From Acidimicrobiales bacterium (lineage in GTDB: Bacteria; Actinomycetota; Acidimicrobiia; Acidimicrobiales; JAUJNH01), in NCBI GenBank assembly GCA_030448245.1, contig JAUJNH010000003.1:43750-107749 (forward strand): DNA of 64,000 bases, in the 5' to 3' direction. Both the position numbers and the translations under genes were made by a program. Positions within the stretch are counted from its first letter, which is position 1; every line of letters starts with the position of its first letter. Under the pieces are notes generated by a model that was given only the letters and a program-made list of their open reading frames with translations, did no database searches and was not told the origin of the DNA. Positions 19,932 through 27,124 of the stretch are shown one piece after another.

Positions 19932-20594
19932 GTGATGGCGCAGGGGGTGGACGACGGCGACGACCTGGCCGTGAGCCTGTCCTGGCCGGGCGGCCCGGCA
20001 CCTCGGCCCCCGGCGCCCCCCCGTCCGGCTCCCCCCAACAACCGCGAGCCGGTGCCCTCCGATCGGGCCGCTCCTCCCCCGGCGCCGCGGATTGACCCCC
20101 CCGGCCCGAACCCGGCGCCCGCCCCCGGGATCACGCCGAGGCCTCCCCCGGCCCCTCGCGTCGGCACCGAGCCCAGGCCACGCCCGCCGGTCGAGGGCCG
20201 CTCGACGGCGTTGCCGCGGCCTGCCGCGCCGGCTCGCCGCTCGGTTCCCCGGGGCCCCGGCACCACCAACGGCCCCCTGGCCAACGACACGCTGCTCAGC
20301 ATGCTCGACCACCTGACGACGCTCTCCCAGCTCGTCACCGGCACGAGCAGGGCGACCTCGGCCGAGCTGGCTGCCCTCGGCGGCCAGGTCGAGAAGGCCG
20401 TCGCCGATCTCGACGCCCTCCAGCTGCGCGTGGTCCGGAGCCTGGCCGGGTTCGACGGCCTGCGGTTGCGCATCCAGAAGGAGCTGGCCGACCGCCCCCC
20501 GCTCACCGACGACGACATCGATCGCATCGCCGACGGCGTCACCCAGCGCCTCCTCAACCACGTCCGGGTGGAGACCGAGGAAGGCCTGCGGTGA
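19932..20594 (+). CDS. hypothetical protein, Pro-rich N-terminal half and helical C-terminal half
   Basis: The C-terminal 100 aa look genuine: DTLLSMLDHLTTLSQLVTGTSRATSAELAALGGQVEKAVADLDALQLRVVRSLAGF...IDRIADGVTQRLLNHV. The N-terminus is a PxP low-complexity region. Confidence 0.45.
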   Translation: MMAQGVDDGDDLAVSLSWPGGPAPRPPAPPRPAPPNNREPVPSDRAAPPPAPRIDPPGPNPAPAPGITPRPPPAPRVGTEPRPRPPVEGRSTALPRPAAPARRSVPRGPGTTNGPLANDTLLSMLDHLTTLSQLVTGTSRATSAELAALGGQVEKAVADLDALQLRVVRSLAGFDGLRLRIQKELADRPPLTDDDIDRIADGVTQRLLNHVRVETEEGLR

Positions 20595-20842
20595 ACCTCC
20601 GGCCTCCGAGCGATCGGGGTCGGGGCTGATCGGACCCGAGTCACCGGTGGCGGCTACCTTCCGGCGCTGCCTGCGTAAAGGTTGGCGCTCCACCTTGAGT
20701 TCTTCGGCACCGCTTCTGCCGACGGGTGAAGCGTCGCCGACCGCCGGGTCAGGGGGACGACAACGCGCGCCTCGCGTCCGGATCATGGCTGGCGTGCCGT
20801 TGAGCGATGAGGACCTCGAGCGGCTGTGACGATCGGTCCTCT

Positions 20843-21724
20843 TCACGGCCCACGCTGGCGCAGCACCTCCGCTCCCACGTCCCTGCGACTTCGCTCCTCG
20901 CGTCGGTGCAGCCGCAAGCATGCGTCAGCGTCTGGTCGGCCGCCGTCGTGTGGAGCCGTAGTCCCGCGGAGTGCTGTGCGGCCCGCCGGACGGGCAACCA
21001 CCACTCCCGAACCCGGCCGCCTCGACGACCATGCAGATCCCAGCGTGACGTGGCCCGGAGGACCGCCTCGCCGATACTGGTGCCGATGACAAGTGAGAGA
21101 GCGGCCGCCAGGACCAGCACCAGGAAGGAACCGGCGCATCTCCACCGACCGCTTGCACTGCCGGACGAGGGCGGCGGAGCGGTCCTCCACGGCGTCGTCG
21201 AGACAGACCTGGTCCCGCGCCGCGATGCACCCCAGCAGCCTGTCGAGGCCCTCGAAGAACTCCACCGTCTCCGGGTGAGCTCGGGGGCTGCGGGCCGCCT
21301 CGGCCATCGCCGCAGCGGCGGCCACCGCCCCCTTCGTGTCGCCTCGTACCAGCCGAGCGAGACCGTCCAGGTACTGCCGGGCCACCGGCGCGTCCTCGGC
21401 GAAGCCCCCCTCGGGCACCCTCGCTGCCACCCGCTCGGCCAAAGCCCGGTCCCCGGCCACCAGCGCCGCCACCAGCCACGAGTCGGCCCGGCCACTGTCG
21501 AGCTCCTGGCCCCGGTCGAGGGCTTCTCCCGCCCACCCCGCCCCCTCGGCCAGCCACTGCCTCAAGACCTCCACCGACTCGCCCAGCGCCCACCCGTACT
21601 GCACGGCCTCCACCGCCCTGCTGACCGCGACGTCGAAGACGTGCAGCCTGCCCTGGCGCCCCGACCGCTCCACCGTCAGGCGAACCAGCTCGATCCCCTC
21701 CTTCTCGAAGTCGTAGTAGCTCAT
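20843..21724 (-). CDS. helical module of unknown function (candidate toxin C-terminal module or immunity protein); 3' end unreliable
   Basis: From ATG 21724: MSYYDFEKEGIELVRLTVERSGRQGRLHVFDVAVSRAVEAVQYGWALGESVEVLRQWL...ALVRQCKRSVEMRR is protein-like for about 200 aa. It then degenerates near 21130, where another frame carries a TM-like FLVLVLAAALSLVIGTSIG. It is in the same frame as the Hint C-terminal piece, with no stop between them. Confidence 0.4.
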   Translation of the reverse strand: MSYYDFEKEGIELVRLTVERSGRQGRLHVFDVAVSRAVEAVQYGWALGESVEVLRQWLAEGAGWAGEALDRGQELDSGRADSWLVAALVAGDRALAERVAARVPEGGFAEDAPVARQYLDGLARLVRGDTKGAVAAAAAMAEAARSPRAHPETVEFFEGLDRLLGCIAARDQVCLDDAVEDRSAALVRQCKRSVEMRRFLPGAGPGGRSLTCHRHQYRRGGPPGHVTLGSAWSSRRPGSGVVVARPAGRTALRGTTAPHDGGRPDADACLRLHRREERSRRDVGAEVLRQRGP

Positions 21725-21785
21725 CTTCCGCCAGCCGCCGCCCCCTGTCCCGCCGTCCTCTTGAGGAGAGAAGAACCGTGCGCCG

Positions 21786-23047
21786 CTACGACCACAAGCC
21801 GGACGAGGCCTGGATGTGTCGACCAGCACCTGTCCCGTCGGGGTGACCAGCCGTTCCCCCGGGGTGAGCTGTTCGGCTTCTCGGAAGGTGCGGGAGGAGG
21901 AGCACCTGTCCCCAGAACCGGTGGTGGTCAGTGGCCGACACCGTGGACCCATCGGCCAGGCGGAGGGTCGGCCAGGCGGAGGGTGGCCATCTCGTCGGTG
22001 CCGAGGTAGGACCACTGCGCCAGCACGGCCCGAGGCGCCCACGAACCGCGTCGGCGTCAAAGGCGAGCACCACGTCACCGGGGCGGACCTGCTCGACGGC
22101 CCGGCGGGCCCCGTCGGCCAGCAGCACCTCGGTCCCGGTGGGGAACGACGACGTTGCCATGCACGTGCCCGGTCCGGCATCGGTGTCGACCTCCTCGCCG
22201 CCGTCGGCGTCGGGGTCTGAGCCGTCACCGCTGTTGCCGTCGTTGTTGCGGCGGCAATCGGACTCCTTCTCCGGCTGAGAAGACTCCGGCAGCGGCAACG
22301 GCGCCAGTTCCGGCTCCGGCCCCCGCAACCCGTCGGTCAGATACGCCTGCACCTCCCCCACGACCAACTCATGCCGGGCCGCCTCCCCCGCTCCAACACC
22401 GTGCCCGCCCCACCGAGGGCCGAGGACCACACCACCTCGTACTCCAACCACACCTGCAACACCAACGGCGGCTTGCCCGCCGTCGTCCGCTCGAACCCCC
22501 GGCCGCACCGCGCCGGACCCGCCGCCCCCGGCGACCACTGCACACCGGGCCCCTCACATACCGTCACCACACCATCGGAGAACTCCCACCGCACCCGCCG
22601 AGGCGTCGCCCCAGCCGACACCTCCACCTCCCCCACACGAGAGGAGGCCGTGAACGCCTGCCACACCCTCGGGTCGGGGTCCACCGCCAACCACATCTCC
22701 AACCCCACCACCTGCACCCCATCCACCCGCGGCGACGTCCGCGCCCCTGGCCGGAAGTACTCCCCCCGCAGCTCACTCAACGACCGGTCCAACGCCGAAC
22801 GCTCCCACCCCGCCGCCTCCGGCCTCAGCTCCTCCACTGCACCGCCCACAGCCCGCAGCCGGCGGTCATCGGTGGCCGGATCCCCGTCATCCACCACCTC
22901 CACACACACCGGCACCCGCCACCGATGCGCCGCCCGCGCCGGCACCAACACCACCCGCGCCCGCATTGCCAAATCCCGGGCCGCCCCATCAGCCCCGCCC
23001 GACAGCACCTCCTCAACCACCCCACCCGCAACCCCGTCCATCGGCAT
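21786..23047 (-). pseudogene. polymorphic-toxin-type protein with pre-toxin Hint domain, disrupted by several frame breaks
   Basis: N-terminal MPMDGVAGGVVEEVL...PLVLQVWLEYEVVWSSALGGAGTVLERG, then a break at the C5 run 22375-22379, then EAARHELVVGEVQAYLTDG...TCMATSSFPTGTEVLLADGARRAVEQVRPGDVVLAFDADA. A break near 22045 leads to RAVLAQWSYLGTDEMATLRLAD, followed by the 16-bp duplication, then GSTVSATDHHRFW. A break near 21900 leads to TFREAEQLTPGERLVTPTGQVLV. Confidence 0.6.
21953..21984. repeat. perfect 16-bp tandem duplication (CGGCCAGGCGGAGGGT x2) inside the Hint domain
   Basis: Read directly from the sequence: 21953-21968 and 21969-21984 are identical. 16 is not a multiple of 3. Removing one copy joins ...DEMATLRLAD to GSTVSATDHHRFW in frame. 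Confidence 0.95.
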
Positions 23048-23622
23048 CACACGCCGAGCCCACCTCCGCCCCCACCGCAGCCCCCGCCGGCAGCAACCCA
23101 AACAACGGCGCCAGCACCACCACCGCCACCCAAACGGCGCATTGGCAAACCCGGTCGTCTCAGCACGACGCCCGCAGCTCCCCGGACGCGGCCACCCCGC
23201 CGCCAACCGCGACCGACCAGCGGTCACGTCGCCCCAGACCCCGCCGGTCAGCTACCGGTCGAACGCTAGGTCCTCTCCACCTCGCTCGCTGCTGCCGGAA
23301 CCGCTTCTCGACCACCTCTGGCCTCCCCGACCCAGTGTCACAATGCGTGTGGTGCAGATCAGCATCCAAAGGCATGACACCAAACGTGCGGTACACCCTT
23401 CACAGGCGGCGTTCGGGCCGCTTCTGACAGGCTCAGCGAGCCAGCCCCGAACCGGAGGTTCGTGATGGACGTGAGGCGCACGGTGGAAACACCAACCGAC
23501 CCCGCCGCGCCCACCCCCAAGCCCCCACCCGACCCACCACCCCACACCCCGCCCCATGGGGATCCCCGCTCCTCGAAGTCGAACGCGCCGTCCAAGAACG
23601 AGCCAAAACCCTCGCCCTCGAC

Positions 23623-23859
23623 ATGGGCCGCCCCGACGGACGCGCCGCCATGCCCTCACTCCTCGACGACGAGATCCGCCGCTGGTCCGACGAGGCCAAA
23701 CGCGGCATCCGCACCCACGACCTCGCCGACCCCGCCGGCCTCACCGAGAGAGCCTGGCGCAACCTCGCCGGCTACGGCCCACTCGAACCCCTCCTCGCCG
23801 ACCCCGACGTGTGGGAGATCATGATCAACGTCCCCGACCAGGCGTTGGCTCACCCATGA
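23623..23859 (+). pseudogene. N-terminal stub of a CpaF/TadA/VirB11-type secretion ATPase
   Basis: 78 aa. LTERAWRNLAGYGPLEPLLADPDVWEIMINVPDQ matches the conserved N-terminal segment (GLGPLEPLL.DP.VTEIMVNGP) of this family. The ORF stops immediately after it, and no Walker motifs follow in any frame. Confidence 0.55.
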
Positions 23860-24142
23860 GATCAGCGTGCGAGCCGAGCTGCCCGGATGCAGGGCGACCG
23901 AAGCTGCCGCCTACCGATTTGCCACGTCGTGCTCGACCCCGTGACGGGCTCGACGTACGAGCAGCGGTAGGGGCCCGGCGCCTTGTAGCTCGTCACGGCC
24001 AAGGGAGAGCCTACCGCAGGCCCGCCGCCGCATCCGCGGCCGGTTGCCGCGTCGGGCTCTGACTCCCTGGAGGACCTCCTCGGCCGTTCCGCGTCGACGA
24101 CGCATAGTGATCAGGGAGCTGCGGCTGACCGGTGATCCTCGG

Positions 24143-24529
24143 TTAGCGAGGCAGTGAACCGGCCAGCAAGGTAGCCAAAGAAGAGATGTCAGCCACCTTG
24201 TGCATGTTGTCGAGCGTCGGCTCGTCGCCCTCTTCCGCCTCATAGTCGTGATCTCAGAAATAGACCTTGCCTCGATCCGGGCCGGTCAAGCCAAGACAGT
24301 AGAGGTTCCCTGCCTGATCATCCGCGATGGGGATGAAGCCGGTCGGCACGCGGCCGGTGTACGTCTTCATCACATCGCGGAGCTTCCGGGAGGAGCCGTC
24401 CGGGTCAGCGACCGAGAACACCTCTCGGACCCCGCCGAACTCGCTCTCCGTGACACTGTTGAACTGGGTCAGCCTCGTACCATCACCTTCGCGCAGGAAG
24501 TCGCCGTACCCTTCGGGTAGCGAACCCAC
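24143..24529 (-). pseudogene. SUKH-1 / SMI1-KNR4-like (polymorphic-toxin immunity type) gene with an in-frame TGA
   Basis: LPEGYGDFLREGDG...FIPIADDQAGNLYCLGLTGPDRGKVYF-TGA-DHDYEAEEGDEPTLDNMHKVADISSLATLLAGSLPR-TAA. The TGA at 24254-24256 sits where this family has the Trp of VYFWDHD. The match extends upstream (IERSVLADLESAVGSLPEGY) with no canonical start codon. Confidence 0.6.
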
Positions 24530-25134
24530 AGCGCTCTCCAGGTCGGCGAGAACGCTACGCTCTATAGGTCGCCCGCGGGTCTGGTAGATCGACGGGTCAG
24601 CCAGCAGGGGCGTTTCCCTGGTACGTCCGCCGCGGCGAAGTCTCGAACCACAGCAGCACCTCCTGTGTGCGGACCGCTTCGGGGATCTCCGTCGGGCTTT
24701 GAGCGGCGGGCCGGCCGGTCCTTGCCGGCTGGGTGGTTTAGCCGAAGCGGGACGGTTCTACGCACAGCTTGGACCCGTCTCAGCGCGGGCTTCCTGAACG
24801 TGGGCGGGCGGCTGGGCTGTGCCGTCGGGTGGCCGGGTAGCGCTCTGCAGGTGTTCGGGGCTGACGGTGCCATGTCGACAGGTGACAGGTTCTTGCTGGG
24901 CTGGCCGCCCTCGCTGCGCTCATGGCCGTGGTAACCGCCACGCAGGGTCGGTGGCTTGCCGGCGCCGTCTTCACTCTGAACGCCGTCAGCTTTCTGGTCG
25001 TGCTGATGCAGCGACGCCAACGTAGGTATTGTTAGCGCTGATCTGTAGCGGACCATCCCCATGGAGTACACCCTCCGCACAAGCGCCGGCCACGTCCCCA
25101 CCGTCGTCCCCCTCCCCGGCGCAGGCCCGGGACG

Positions 25135-26172
25135 GTGAACATCCACGTGGCGCCGCCCCGGTTGCTCCCGATGCTCGCTGGCGGCAACGGCATCCCACCT
25201 GACCCCGACGCTCACCAGCTAGAGCCGAAACTTGATGGGCAAAGGATCGTCGCCCTGGTCGAGCCGTCGGGGGTCGTGCTCACCAACCGGCGGGGCGGCG
25301 AGATCACCGGCACCTACCCCGAGCTCGCCGGGTTGGCTCCGGCGCTGGCTCACCACGCCGCGGTGCTCGACGGTGAGGTCGTCGCCTTCAACGAGAAGGG
25401 CCAGACGAGCTTCCAGCGCCTCCAACGGAGGATGCACGTCCTGCGGCCTCCTCCCGCCCTCCTGATCGAAACGCCCGTGTCGTTCGTCGCCTTCGACGTG
25501 CTCTGGCTCGACGGCCAGCTCCTCATCGACCGACCGCAGACCGAGCGGCGCCGGGTCCTCGACAGCCTGAGCATCAAAGGCCCGGCCTGGCAGACCGCTC
25601 CGGTCCTCGACGCCACCCCAGATGAGCTGCTCGACGCCTGCCGCAACCTCGGCCTCGAGGGCTTCATGGCCAAGCGGCTCGACGCCCCCTACCAACCCGG
25701 CCGACGGTCAACGGCATGGTCGAAGATCAAGTGCGGCCGGCGCCGCGAGTTCGTCGTGGGCGGCTGGTCGACCGGTCACGGCAGCCGCCAGGACAGCATC
25801 GGCTCCCTGGCGCTCGGCTGCTACGACGCGGCGGCCGAGGAGGCGGAACGGCGGGGCCGGCCCCAGCAGCTGTTCTACGTCGGCCAAGCGGGCTCAGGGT
25901 TGAACGAGGAGACGATCGGCCAGCTCAAACGCCTCTTCGCCCAGATCGCCATCCCGACCTCGCCGTTCATCAACCCGCCCAAGGCCGGGCTCCACCACGC
26001 CCAGCCGATCCTGGTGACCGAGGTGGCCTACACCGAGGTCACCGAGAGCGGCACGCTCCGCCAGCCCTCGATCAAGGGACTCCGCACCGACGTCATCGCC
26101 ACCGAGGTCACCTGGGACGAGGAGATCGCCGCCTGCTTCCCCGATCAGCTGCGGGGACGCGGAGGTGGCTGA
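25135..26172 (+). CDS. ligD: ATP-dependent DNA ligase, LigD ligase-domain type (stand-alone)
   Basis: PRLLPMLA..., motif I EPKLDGQR, motif III FDVLWLDG, motif IV EGFMAKR, motif V WSKIK. 345 aa. Confidence 0.85.
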   Translation: MNIHVAPPRLLPMLAGGNGIPPDPDAHQLEPKLDGQRIVALVEPSGVVLTNRRGGEITGTYPELAGLAPALAHHAAVLDGEVVAFNEKGQTSFQRLQRRMHVLRPPPALLIETPVSFVAFDVLWLDGQLLIDRPQTERRRVLDSLSIKGPAWQTAPVLDATPDELLDACRNLGLEGFMAKRLDAPYQPGRRSTAWSKIKCGRRREFVVGGWSTGHGSRQDSIGSLALGCYDAAAEEAERRGRPQQLFYVGQAGSGLNEETIGQLKRLFAQIAIPTSPFINPPKAGLHHAQPILVTEVAYTEVTESGTLRQPSIKGLRTDVIATEVTWDEEIAACFPDQLRGRGGG

Positions 26173-27124
26173 GAACCGGGTCACCGTCGAGGTCGAGGGG
26201 CGCACGCTCGTCATCGGCAACCTCGACAAGCGCCTCTACCCCGACGGGACCACCAAGGCCGAGGTCATCCACTACCTGACGGCGGTGGCGCCGGTGCTCC
26301 TCCCCCACCTGGCAGGTCGGGCCATCACCATGAAGCGCTTCCCCGACGGCACCCAGGGCGGCTTCTTCTACGAGAAGCGCTGCCCGTCGCACGCCCCCGA
26401 GTGGGTGAGGACGGTGGACCAGTGGGTCAGCCACGGCGCCGGCCGCTGGGGCAAGGAGGACCGGGGCCCGAAGACCAGCGAGGAGGTGCCCTTCTGTGTG
26501 GTCGAAAGCCTGCCGACGCTGGTCTGGCTGGGCGGCATGGCCGCGCTCGAGCTGCACACGCCCATGGCCCAGGCGGCCGGCCGGTGGGGGGCGGAGGTGC
26601 CGACGCTGGTCGTGCTCGACCTCGACCCCGGGGCCCCCGCCAACGCCGTGGAGTGCGCGGTGGTGGCACTGCGCATCCGCGAGCTGCTGGACACCCTCGG
26701 GCTGCGCACCGTCGTCAAGTCCTCGGGCAACAAGGGGCTGCAGGTCTACATCCCGGTCAACGTCCCCGGCACCACCCACGACGGGGCCCGGGGCTTCGCC
26801 CAAGCCATCGCCCTGCTGCTCGAGAAGCAGGACCCGCAGCTGGTCGTGTCGCAGCAGCGCAAGGACCTCCGGCCCGGCAAGGTGCTGATCGACTGGCTCC
26901 AGAACGAGTCGTTCAAGACCACCGTGTCCGTCTACTCGCTGCGGGCCCGGGAGCGACCCACGGTCTCGACGCCGCTGGCCTGGGACGAGGTGGAGGCCCT
27001 GGCCCAGGGCGGTGATCCCGAGTCGATCCAGATGAGCCCCCAGCAGGTGCTGGAACGGGTCGCCCGGCACGGTGACCTCTTCGCCGAGGCCACCACCCTC
27101 GAGCAGCCGCTGCCGAAGCTCTGA
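26165..27124 (+). CDS. ligD: NHEJ DNA polymerase/primase, LigD polymerase-domain type (stand-alone)
   Basis: VEVEGRTLVIGNLDKRLYPDGTTKAEVIHYL, MKRFPDG, FFYEKR, VVLDLDP, SSGNKGLQVYIP. Overlaps the ligase gene by 8 nt. Confidence 0.85.
   Translation: MAENRVTVEVEGRTLVIGNLDKRLYPDGTTKAEVIHYLTAVAPVLLPHLAGRAITMKRFPDGTQGGFFYEKRCPSHAPEWVRTVDQWVSHGAGRWGKEDRGPKTSEEVPFCVVESLPTLVWLGGMAALELHTPMAQAAGRWGAEVPTLVVLDLDPGAPANAVECAVVALRIRELLDTLGLRTVVKSSGNKGLQVYIPVNVPGTTHDGARGFAQAIALLLEKQDPQLVVSQQRKDLRPGKVLIDWLQNESFKTTVSVYSLRARERPTVSTPLAWDEVEALAQGGDPESIQMSPQQVLERVARHGDLFAEATTLEQPLPKL

Follow-up and report, generated by a model that had tools for sequence, protein, structure and literature searches.

The segment at positions 20,600-25,134 of a 64,000-nucleotide stretch from an Acidimicrobiales bacterium (NCBI GenBank assembly GCA_030448245.1, contig JAUJNH010000003.1; the whole stretch is referred to as the window and the segment as the island) lies between ordinary coding regions and holds pieces of a toxin gene, of two immunity genes and of a TadA/CpaF-type ATPase gene. 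Based on the evidence given below, the island is very probably the inactivated and rearranged remnant of a polymorphic toxin/immunity locus in an Acidimicrobiia genome, an ordinary object of a known kind. A decayed locus of this type had been proposed from the sequence alone (the original prediction) and was borne out, its Hint, SUKH and CpaF/TadA assignments now being supported by profiles or homology; all five features that it described were found where it had placed them or close by.

Genomic context and loss of reading frames

The DNA of the window is GC-rich (0.70-0.80), with 0.74-0.79 in the flanks versus 0.64-0.72 in the island. Open reading frames (ORFs) passing a coding filter (GC content above 0.84 at third codon positions, GC3, and below 0.62 at second positions, GC2; length of at least 90 aa) tile both flanks densely, and there are none within 20,592-25,041. 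A plot of GC by codon position displayed a strong third-position signal in the flanks and a weaker, frame-switching one inside 20,600-25,134. The collapse of ORF integrity between ordinary flanks that had been reported at 20594-25135 is supported by the composition filter as well as by the drop in GC.

The region was compared with two other assemblies, NCBI assembly GCA_030447705.1 (contig JAUJOI010000012.1; locus L001) and a Logan contig from run SRR24765286 (L002), both of which encode the LigD ligase of the window (25,135-26,172) identically. Over 15,166-36,175, L001 and the window are 99.6-99.9% identical, and L001 was accordingly judged to be an independent assembly of a very close strain. 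The nearest species-representative genomes with the ligase are metagenome-assembled genomes of Acidimicrobiia/Acidimicrobiales, with up to 79% identity.

The toxin pseudogene

The minus-strand region running from 23,177 to 21,823 reads as a pseudogene of a secreted PT-HINT polymorphic toxin. An intact relative, P0016 (747 aa), was mapped onto the window by tblastn, and the following parts were distinguished:

23,039-23,177, minus strand: toxin 5' end (P0016 residues 2-46), with an in-frame TGA at 23,160-23,162 and no usable start codon
22,385-23,038, minus strand: main frame of the N-terminal module, or N-module (DGVAGGVVEEVL...AGTVLERG; P0016 residues 47-261, 48% identity, E = 4e-64)
22,254-22,409, minus strand: last beta-strand of the N-module (HELVVGEVQAYLTDG) and Pro-rich linker (PLPLPESSQPEKESDC; P0016 residues 254-305, 56% identity)
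21,823-22,253, minus strand: acidic Asp/Gly linker (RRNNDGNSGDGSDPD...) and N-terminal two thirds of PT-HINT (tblastn with P0016, P0018 and P0020)
22,169-21,906, minus strand: Hint piece (P0016 residues 467-549), with a frameshift near 22,045
21,886-21,823, minus strand: Hint piece (P0016 residues 554-575)
21,952-21,983, no strand: perfect 16-bp tandem duplication (TCGGCCAGGCGGAGGG twice) within the Hint region, one copy of which is missing in the sister assembly
21,901-21,912, no strand: 12-nt string AGCACCTGTCCC, which arose through a 7-bp insertion (21,903-21,909) and one substitution and is absent in the sister assembly

At the 5' end, tblastn aligned P0016 residues 2-61 with 23,177-22,992, and P0002, P0003 and P0009 were aligned there as well. 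A hydrophobic segment resembling a signal peptide or anchor (AVWVAVVVLAPLFGLLPAGAAVGAEVGSACDADG, 23,159-23,039) is homologous to the signal peptides of the relatives; it has a TGA upstream, no start codon, and is out of frame with the N-module, from which it is parted by a frameshift near 23,040. The N-module in turn is severed from its own last strand by a window-specific 1-bp deletion at 22,384, the frame being restored in L001 by an extra C, and in the 22,254-22,409 piece the frame returns to that of the 23,039-23,177 piece. The helical region that follows in P0016 (residues ~306-455, ~150 aa) is absent from the window, where ...EKESDC joins RRNNDGNSGDGSDPD...PGTC directly.

The Hint domain is distributed over three minus-strand frames by the shared frameshift near 22,045 and two window-specific insertions, with separate hidden Markov model (HMM) matches in each frame. 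The joined translation matched positions 5-96 of 137 of Pfam PT-HINT (PF07591) with 26.9 bits (cut-off 27.7) and E = 6e-6, in agreement with the description of a Hint domain spread over three frames in the original prediction. The 12-nt string at 21,901-21,912 copies 21,825-21,836, located 76 bp away, its sole other occurrence within the window. For P0016 residues ~576-747 (last third of Hint plus toxin) no counterpart was found in the window: homology stops at ~21,823 and is followed by the inverted start of the next gene. Altogether, the pseudogene has accumulated at least four frameshifts or stops shared between assemblies and three window-specific indels, and is devoid of ~150 central residues, the last third of Hint and the entire toxin domain.

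The Imm49-like immunity gene and its inverted start

Downstream of the toxin remnant three further parts were delimited:

21,132-21,724, minus strand: body of an Imm49-like gene, codons 17-211 of 250, with ~40 3' codons lost
21,757-21,822, plus strand: ribosome-binding site GAGGAG (~21,760), GTG start and first 15 codons (VRRYDHKPDEAWMCR) of that gene, inverted relative to its body
20,600-21,131, no strand: unassignable sequence into which the immunity ORF continues up to a stop at 20,843-20,845, and where the codon-position GC signal changes frame

The original prediction had noted a unit beginning with MSYYDF that follows Hint in frame and without a stop, and this was confirmed (ORF 20,843-22,228); likewise, its tail had been described as degenerate near 21130, and the homology to relatives, which run ~40 residues further, ends at ~21,132. 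In contrast, the unit is not a toxin module but a separate 250-aa gene that stands alone in P0012, P0013 and P0160, and MSYYDF represents a fortuitous ATG ~16 residues into the gene as judged by the relatives. These three proteins (248-251 aa, 67-81% identity, beginning with MRRY(D/A)HKPDE.W) were the only intact homologues found in 5.8 billion clusters, the body of the window gene being 68% identical to P0012 (250 aa).

The missing beginning of the gene is encoded on the opposite strand: VRRYDHKPDEAWMCR (21,778-21,822, plus) is 80% identical to residues 1-15 of P0012, and blastn of the inverted start matched the metagenomic loci L003 (341-377, 89%) and L055 (264-296, 94%), both plus/plus. The inverted start abuts the last homologous Hint codon (GQVLV, 21,835-21,821), and the stretch after GQVLV that had been taken for the Hint tail (DTSRPRPACGRSGARFF) is really the antisense of the ribosome-binding site, start and first 15 codons of the Imm49-like gene.

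Imm49, listed as an all-alpha immunity protein and partner of the restriction-endonuclease-fold toxins Tox-REase-1/-6 (Zhang et al., 2012, PMC3482391), was the sole Pfam match of the intact homologues (PF15575, DUF556), spanning positions 17-207 of 217 of the profile with 20.9 bits for P0012 (E = 3e-4) and 16.8 bits for P0013 (E = 5e-3), the cut-off being 30.1. A profile search with the Imm49-like alignment, performed to bridge to annotated Imm49 proteins, retrieved one further close homologue only, and a PDB profile search gave only a weak match to YfdQ (E = 0.02). As in Imm49, the homologues match nearly the full profile and the gene follows closely on the 3' end of a toxin gene; unlike it, the homologues score below the cut-off, the window copy is unmatched and the upstream toxin end has no Pfam match.

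The position directly downstream of a toxin, as expected for an immunity gene, is found for the window gene and equally for its homologues in L003 and L055, which lie a few dozen bases 3' of the end of another frame containing HVVEAKGG/HVVEA. The VEAKGG of this upstream toxin end is E-x-K-like; the ends themselves are frameshifted, located on short contigs and have no Pfam match. From these features we infer an immunity function for the Imm49-like protein, and the toxin lost from the window may have been a nuclease. The sequence at 20,600-21,131 gave no Pfam match and no similarity to the neighbouring genes of the relatives.

In the relatives the Imm49-like gene is invariably followed by a 182-aa gene (L055 1,021-1,569; L056 865-1,122; L003 1,096-1,155), which is absent from the window. 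Its sole match was a weak one to DUF7691 (E = 0.009), and it may be a second immunity gene or an accessory gene of the cassette.

The SUKH-1 gene

A second immunity gene is located upstream:

24,146-24,580, minus strand: SUKH-1 (SMI1/KNR4) immunity pseudogene, with an internal TGA at 24,254-24,256

The stop-to-stop frame 24,257-24,757 matched SMI1_KNR4 (PF09346) with 37 bits, over the cut-off of 25.4, and SUKH_6 with 33 bits; past the TGA, which interrupts the match, the frame continues as DHDYEAEEGDEPTLDNMHKVADISSLATLLAGSL. Reading the TGA as Trp raised the score to 48.2 bits, so that the original codon was presumably TGG. The match starts nine codons upstream of the first possible start (GTG 24,529), and no ATG, GTG or TTG was found upstream of the conserved N-terminal residues. 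The identical state, with the TGA and no start, was observed in L001 and L002. The SUKH-1-like ORF with an internal TGA described in the original prediction is thus backed by a Pfam score over the cut-off. It resembles the SUKH-1/SMI1-KNR4 immunity proteins in its profile match and its location within a toxin locus, and differs from them in being broken by the TGA and in having neither a start codon nor an adjoining toxin gene.

Lesions shared with sister assemblies

L001 has the frameshifts near 23,040 and 22,045 in common with the window, likewise lacks the helical region and the end of Hint, and shows the same inverted start; it has also lost the 3' end of the Imm49-like gene and carries the SUKH TGA and the truncated ATPase gene cpaF described in the next section. 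L002 shares the SUKH TGA and the ATPase fragment. Because the same lesions occur in an independent assembly, they are judged to be real and not errors of a single one. An artefact, in which the genes would be intact in the organism and the frameshifts would reflect sequencing or assembly errors such as collapsed paralogues in a metagenome-assembled genome, is extremely improbable. It could draw on the toxin paralogues present elsewhere in the genome (L004, see below), on the clustering of the differences between assemblies in 21,251-22,384 and on a scaffold gap of L001 at 25,027-25,067. However, the major lesions recur unchanged in an independent assembly with 0.1-0.4% divergence elsewhere, the SUKH and cpaF states are found in a third one as well, and the flanking genes on the same contig are intact; moreover, the L004 paralogues are too diverged to have been merged with the window copy, and an inversion and deletions of hundreds of bases are not base-calling errors.

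Three changes are exclusive to the window (the 1-bp deletion at 22,384, the 16-bp tandem duplication at 21,952-21,983 and the 7-bp insertion at 21,903-21,909) and one, a 5-bp deletion at 21,668-21,672 which frameshifts the Imm49-like gene, to L001. With private indels in the window and in a sister strain that is 99.9% identical, the comparison indicates that decay is continuing.

The TadA/CpaF ATPase fragment

Between the toxin 5' end and the SUKH-1 gene lies a piece of an ATPase gene:

23,563-23,859, plus strand: 5' fragment of a TadA/CpaF-type ATPase gene, residues ~5-97, reading ...EIMINVPDQ, then ALAHP and a stop

The fragment has no native start, the first in-frame start being ATG 23,623, and none occurs before residue 21 of the conserved region. 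The presence of a 78-aa stub of a CpaF/TadA-type ATPase, as previously proposed, was supported by the best solved-structure match of this ORF in the PDB, CpaF (E = 0.004, residues 35-70 versus CpaF 53-88), and by the 67% identity of the fragment to residues 2-97 of the intact CpaF of L058; intact TadA/CpaF relatives measure 430-520 aa. Over the whole window, tblastn with an intact CpaF relative recovered residues 2-97 only, and the Pfam T2SSE ATPase domain with its Walker motifs was matched neither by the fragment nor elsewhere. Compared with the CpaF/TadA motor ATPases of Tad (type IVc) pili, ~95 N-terminal residues are homologous and the relatives reside in cpaB-cpaE-cpaF-tadBC loci, but the window holds the N-terminal domain only, in a truncated form kept in another lineage.

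A metagenome scan with the fragment yielded 20 loci with 59-82% identity. The intact relatives match the TIGR03819, VirB11 and TrbB models and have cpaB, cpaE-like and tadB/C-like genes as neighbours; their best NCBIfam model, TIGR03819, is named "TadA family conjugal transfer-associated ATPase" and scores 192 bits versus a cut-off of 373. The orthologue in L057 has the same truncated end (PDQTLAQP-stop versus PDQALAHP-stop in the window) and is 82% identical, and the rates of synonymous and nonsynonymous substitution between the two were dS = 0.66 and dN = 0.094, a dN/dS of 0.14 as compared with 0.21 for intact genes over the same region. Since L057 shares the truncated form with such a low ratio, the fragment looks conserved by purifying selection, or repeatedly converted, rather than decaying, and its inclusion among the decaying parts in the original prediction was not upheld.

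A frameshifted copy of the fragment was also seen in L076 (879-1,176), and in L060 (1,933-2,277; the same as L061 and L062) and L069 (473-742) cpaF is broken within ~10 codons of the same point and continued by different tails. The recurrent break lies after ...VWEIM[IV], the L057 copy being at 606-902. Such recurrent breakage suggests either a conserved small protein or a recombination/insertion hotspot in cpaF.

Weighing the evidence for an inactivated locus

The components described above agree with the Sec-dependent PT-HINT polymorphic toxins (Zhang, Aravind, 2012, PMC3482391) in that intact relatives have the same domain order and an immunity gene, and that orphan cassettes and extra immunity genes occur in the same genome. 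They depart from them in that the window gene is frameshifted and lacks the toxin domain and the last third of Hint, and in that the N-terminal domain is matched by no Pfam or NCBIfam model. By analogy with the established model of such toxins, the intact protein would be exported by Sec, the N-module would hold or present the toxin at the cell envelope, the Hint domain would cut off the C-terminal toxin by self-cleavage, and the product of the downstream gene would protect the producer. In the window the toxin gene has lost its start, helical region, last Hint third and toxin domain and gained several frameshifts, the cognate Imm49-like gene has lost its 3' end and has its translation start inverted, and a second, orphan SUKH immunity gene has acquired a nonsense codon. 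As judged from its sequence, no toxin can be made from the island.

A number of observations weigh against this interpretation. The joined remnant misses the PT-HINT cut-off by 0.8 bits, the Imm49 assignment of the homologues is likewise sub-threshold, and the window copy of the Imm49-like gene has no Pfam match of its own. In the window the Imm49-like ORF (21,724-20,843) has remained open and may have residual function, and the dN/dS of 0.14 of the ATPase fragment versus its same-end orthologue is unlike that of a decaying piece. Furthermore, all nine island differences between the window and L001 (five substitutions and four indels) fall within 21,251-22,384, that is, 1.13 kb (L001 6,085-7,191), where the rates in the flanks would predict 0.57 substitutions (P = 3e-4) and only 0.11 indels (P = 7e-6). 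Over its remaining 3.3 kb the island is identical between both, with a chance of ~5e-6. This clustering is not predicted by simple neutral decay of the whole island; relaxed selection accounts for the indels but not for their confinement to 1.13 kb. Population heterogeneity, conversion from an unseen paralogue and local mutagenesis are candidate explanations.

A related alternative is that the island is partly alive and kept as a store of orphan immunity genes and of substrates for recombination, in which the N-terminal ATPase fragment, and perhaps the Imm49-like ORF, are still functional small proteins. The low dN/dS (at dS 0.66) versus L057, the derived tail PDQ(A/T)LA(H/Q)P shared with it along with the stop, and the truncated copies of L060-62 and L069, whose breaks fall within ~10 codons of the same site, are consistent with such a role, as are the open Imm49-like ORF and the orphan immunity genes known from polymorphic toxin loci (PMC3482391). 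On the other hand, the Imm49-like gene is devoid of its own ribosome-binding site, start and last 40 codons and is frameshifted in the sister strain, the SUKH nonsense codon is present in all three assemblies, the first start codon in the ATPase fragment of the window comes no earlier than residue 21 of the conserved region, and a low dN/dS could also result if an intact cpaF elsewhere in each genome had converted the fragment. A partly living island is considered unlikely, and an inactivated locus is preferred.

Read as an inactivated locus, the island is a textbook case of the erosion of a toxin-immunity system by deletion, inversion, slippage duplications and nonsense mutation, in which two near-identical strains show the process under way.

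Rearrangement and origin of the island

The remaining parts of the island are the following:

23,178-23,562, no strand: unassignable sequence, without detectable similarity, that separates the ATPase fragment from the toxin 5' end
24,581-25,134, no strand: ~0.55 kb without a supported gene (no ORF, tRNA or Rfam support)

The absence of a convincing ORF at 24530-25134 in the original prediction agrees with the lack of any supported ORF, tRNA or Rfam match at 24,581-25,134. Rfam and tRNA scans of the island gave no match, a promoter and terminator scan detected none, and a distant DNA search of 23,250-25,134 against a plasmid collection was likewise negative.

In L055 the order on a single strand is toxin end, Imm49-like gene, 182-aa gene and cpaF 5' end, and three of its segments correspond to the window:

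L055 264-296: window 21,779-21,811, plus/plus
L055 323-894: window 21,707-21,132, plus/minus
L055 1,749-1,957: window 23,563-23,771, plus/plus

The immunity-gene start and the cpaF fragment are hence in common orientation, with the immunity-gene body inverted between them and the toxin remnant on the strand of the body. To arrive at the window order from that of L055, at least two inversion breakpoints and several deletions are required. A small local inversion of 21,757-21,822 alone was considered and rejected: in this comparison that segment is oriented like cpaF, with the gene body and the toxin turned round, which demands at least two events. The deletions must have taken away the end of Hint and the toxin domain, together with the 182-aa gene and the 3' part of the Imm49-like gene. 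Remnants of the neighbouring genes of the relatives (the 182-aa gene, the lost 3' part of the Imm49-like gene, the lipoprotein gene described below and Tad genes) were searched for in 20,400-21,300 and 23,150-23,600, and none rose above noise.

Horizontal acquisition of the locus, which had also been proposed, is plausible and fits the lower GC and the different surroundings in which its pieces occur elsewhere; neither a tRNA nor an integrase or flanking repeat accompanies the island. A more specific version, in which the island is the remnant of an integrative/conjugative element that delivered the toxin cassette, seems improbable. GC and GC3 under the flank values, the words "conjugal transfer-associated" in the best NCBIfam name of the intact ATPase relatives, the differing contexts of island pieces in other metagenomes (L055, L057) and the recurrent cpaF break, which could mark an insertion site, point in that direction. 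However, the window contains no tRNA, repeats in the flanks, whether direct or inverted, amount to chance-level short matches, no integrase, relaxase, coupling protein or VirB4 domain was detected in any island frame, the cpaF 3' part is nowhere within the window, and the TIGR03819 match reaches 192 of the 373 bits required, the intact genes belonging to cpaB-cpaE-cpaF-tadB/C pilus loci. The possible link to conjugation raised by the original prediction consequently found no evidence, the intact relatives being Tad-pilus ATPases.

A synteny scan with the LigD ligase in species-representative genomes (48 loci) found no shared flanking order and no island piece, except for a GT4 homologue in L046. 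Since the closest available relatives (~77% LigD identity) share no gene order, this comparison was uninformative.

The N-module family and its intact toxins

The family of the N-terminal module had not been recognized from the sequence, and neither the module nor its relatives match any Pfam or NCBIfam model. As a query it found only 11 close proteins, none with a Pfam domain or a name, several of which start with a hydrophobic signal-like segment and lead from the module through ELVVGEVQAYLTDG..PLPLPES into a helical region. When a profile of these proteins was searched against 1.84 billion representatives (clusters at 50% identity), 2,783 matched with E <= 1e-3, the full-length matches being proteins of 747-850 aa. 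A full PT-HINT (~residues 480-680) over the cut-off, with 33-44 bits, followed by 100-170 residues, was present in each of the six long relatives that were tested. Source names are invariably "hypothetical protein", mostly from Acidimicrobiia. A weak N-module match in L016 near ligD was discarded, having support neither from codon composition nor from context.

The intact proteins P0016, P0018 and P0020 (747-790 aa) are composed of a signal peptide, the N-module of ~240 aa (alpha/beta part plus PKD/Ig-like beta-sandwich), a helical region of ~150-170 aa, PT-HINT and a variable toxin of ~130-170 aa, with a small gene directly downstream. These proteins and the L004 copies have the N-module, helical region and Hint in common and unrelated C-terminal ends.

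An AlphaFold2 model of the N-module based on a 149-sequence alignment reached a mean predicted local distance difference test score (pLDDT) of 84.5, with values above 90 for nearly all residues 41-280; it replaced an earlier model from 10 sequences that was too poor (pLDDT 51.5). The predicted fold consists of an N-terminal helix, an alpha/beta part and a beta-sandwich. Foldseek searches of the model against PDB and BFVD gave no match at E <= 1e-3, and only local PKD/Ig/FN3-like similarity was seen (PKD domain of ColG, probability 0.94-0.97, target TM-score ~0.5). The C-terminal ~140 aa of the module also end thousands of stand-alone secreted proteins of ~280 aa without toxins.

The N-module may be compared with MAFB-N, Microscilla-N and APD1/APD2, lineage-specific N-terminal domains of Sec-exported toxins for which surface anchoring or clustering has been proposed (PMC3482391, section 37). 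Like these, it stands directly after the signal peptide and before divergent C-termini; unlike them, part of it occurs in toxin-less proteins as well, two intact N-module toxins in long contexts end Tad operons, and no sequence relation between the N-module and these domains was found. Following up the remnant in the window uncovered a large family of domains of secreted proteins in Acidimicrobiia and relatives, which has no Pfam or NCBIfam model, serves as N-terminal carrier of PT-HINT toxins and has a confidently predicted fold with no close solved relative.

A second, larger graveyard of the toxin family was observed in the same genome on another contig, at L004 (GCA_030447705.1, contig JAUJOI010000007.1, 6,830-27,822), with at least four fragmentary or chimeric copies that include N-module, helical, PT-HINT and toxin parts. 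One N-module piece is fused to a Hint end and a CdiA_C toxin with a SitI3 immunity gene, and orphan Hint-toxin cassettes and two transposase genes (DDE_Tnp_1, ISL3) are also present.

Tad operon context of the intact toxins

P0018 (790 aa, L077 1,777-12,977) and P0020 (785 aa, L078 109-11,378) are each encoded by the last large gene of a Tad operon, in the order cpaB, a gene in the cpaE position, cpaF (T2SSE), tadB and tadC, a 69-aa Flp-like pilin and three TadE/Tad-type genes, then genes for a LysM membrane protein and a lipoprotein, and finally the toxin with a small gene downstream. In L077 the genes from the TadE-like ones up to and including that after the toxin have overlapping start and stop codons. 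The lipoprotein-toxin pair recurs in L053. Since L054, with a stand-alone member of the family, has the lipoprotein but an EAL-domain gene upstream, the Tad link of N-module toxins is suggestive only. No Tad genes were found near the window island or near L004, and no paper linking PT-HINT toxins with Tad operons was found in the literature that was searched.

Based on these operons, it can tentatively be hypothesized that the N-module is a Tad-pilus-associated domain whose toxins form a class coupled in Acidimicrobiia to the Tad (type IVc) pilus in production, export or presentation. The island, in which a cpaF fragment neighbours the toxin remnant, would then be the wreck of such a system, and the conserved, truncated N-domain of CpaF might persist as a small protein that acts on the pilus motor; this is a possibility, and a doubtful one. 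The nearest precedent is the Kil system of Myxococcus, a Tad-like pilus in contact-dependent killing with interchangeable minor-pilin tips (PMC8460266, PMC12075869). In both cases a Tad apparatus is genetically coupled to variable killing-related components; however, the variable parts of Kil are minor-pilin complexes and no PT-HINT toxin/immunity pair has been described there, whereas here the link is gene order in two contigs only and the N-module has a Sec-type, not a prepilin, signal. If the hypothesis were true, the Tad system would be added to the known delivery routes of polymorphic toxins, the two operons being the first hint of such toxins built into Tad pilus operons. If general, it would offer a testable route of toxin export or presentation in a poorly studied, mostly uncultured actinobacterial class, and a parallel to the Tad-dependent contact killing of Myxococcus.

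It is distinctly unlikely that the island is what remains in place of a whole Tad pilus operon ending in a toxin-immunity pair, as in L077 and L078, rather than of a lone cassette acquisition. The toxin is terminal and translationally coupled in both long intact contexts, the cpaF fragment of the window lies ~0.4 kb from the toxin 5' end, and L055 likewise links an Imm49-like gene and cpaF. Nevertheless, the cpaF fragment belongs to another subgroup than the cpaF of L077/L078 (E = 8e-5 only), no N-module gene occurs within 10 kb of the closest intact cpaF relatives, traces of tadB/C, flp, TadE-like, LysM and lipoprotein genes are not detectable, and gene order and orientation do not fit.

The lipoprotein-like gene, which has no Pfam match, directly precedes the toxins as well as a stand-alone N-module-type protein (L053 2-868, L054 670-1,239, L077 8,574-9,602, L078 7,207-8,298), which suggests a conserved two-gene unit.

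Borders and flanking genes

At the left border of the island, 19,932-20,594 (plus) contains an intact 220-aa gene, very Pro-rich in its N-terminal half and coiled-coil-like in its C-terminal half, with weak HrpB7 matches only (E ~0.01) and no homologue in related loci. Towards the right border, a 49-codon hydrophobic stretch (QVLAGLAALAALMAVVTATQGRWLAGAVFTLNAVSFLVVLMQRRQRRYC, 24,886-25,032, plus), the only protein-like piece within 24,581-25,134, resembles the C-terminal end of a lost membrane protein and has no family match. A 100-N scaffold gap of L001 (9,834-9,933) falls exactly at window 25,027-25,067, a 41-nt AT-richer stretch just upstream of ligD. The LigD region (25,135-27,124) is composed of a ligase ORF and a separate primase-polymerase ORF with an 8-nt overlap, and is surrounded by glycosyltransferase, ABC (Wzt-like) and methyltransferase genes; in several related genomes (L005, L011, L018) the ligase is present as two tandem copies.

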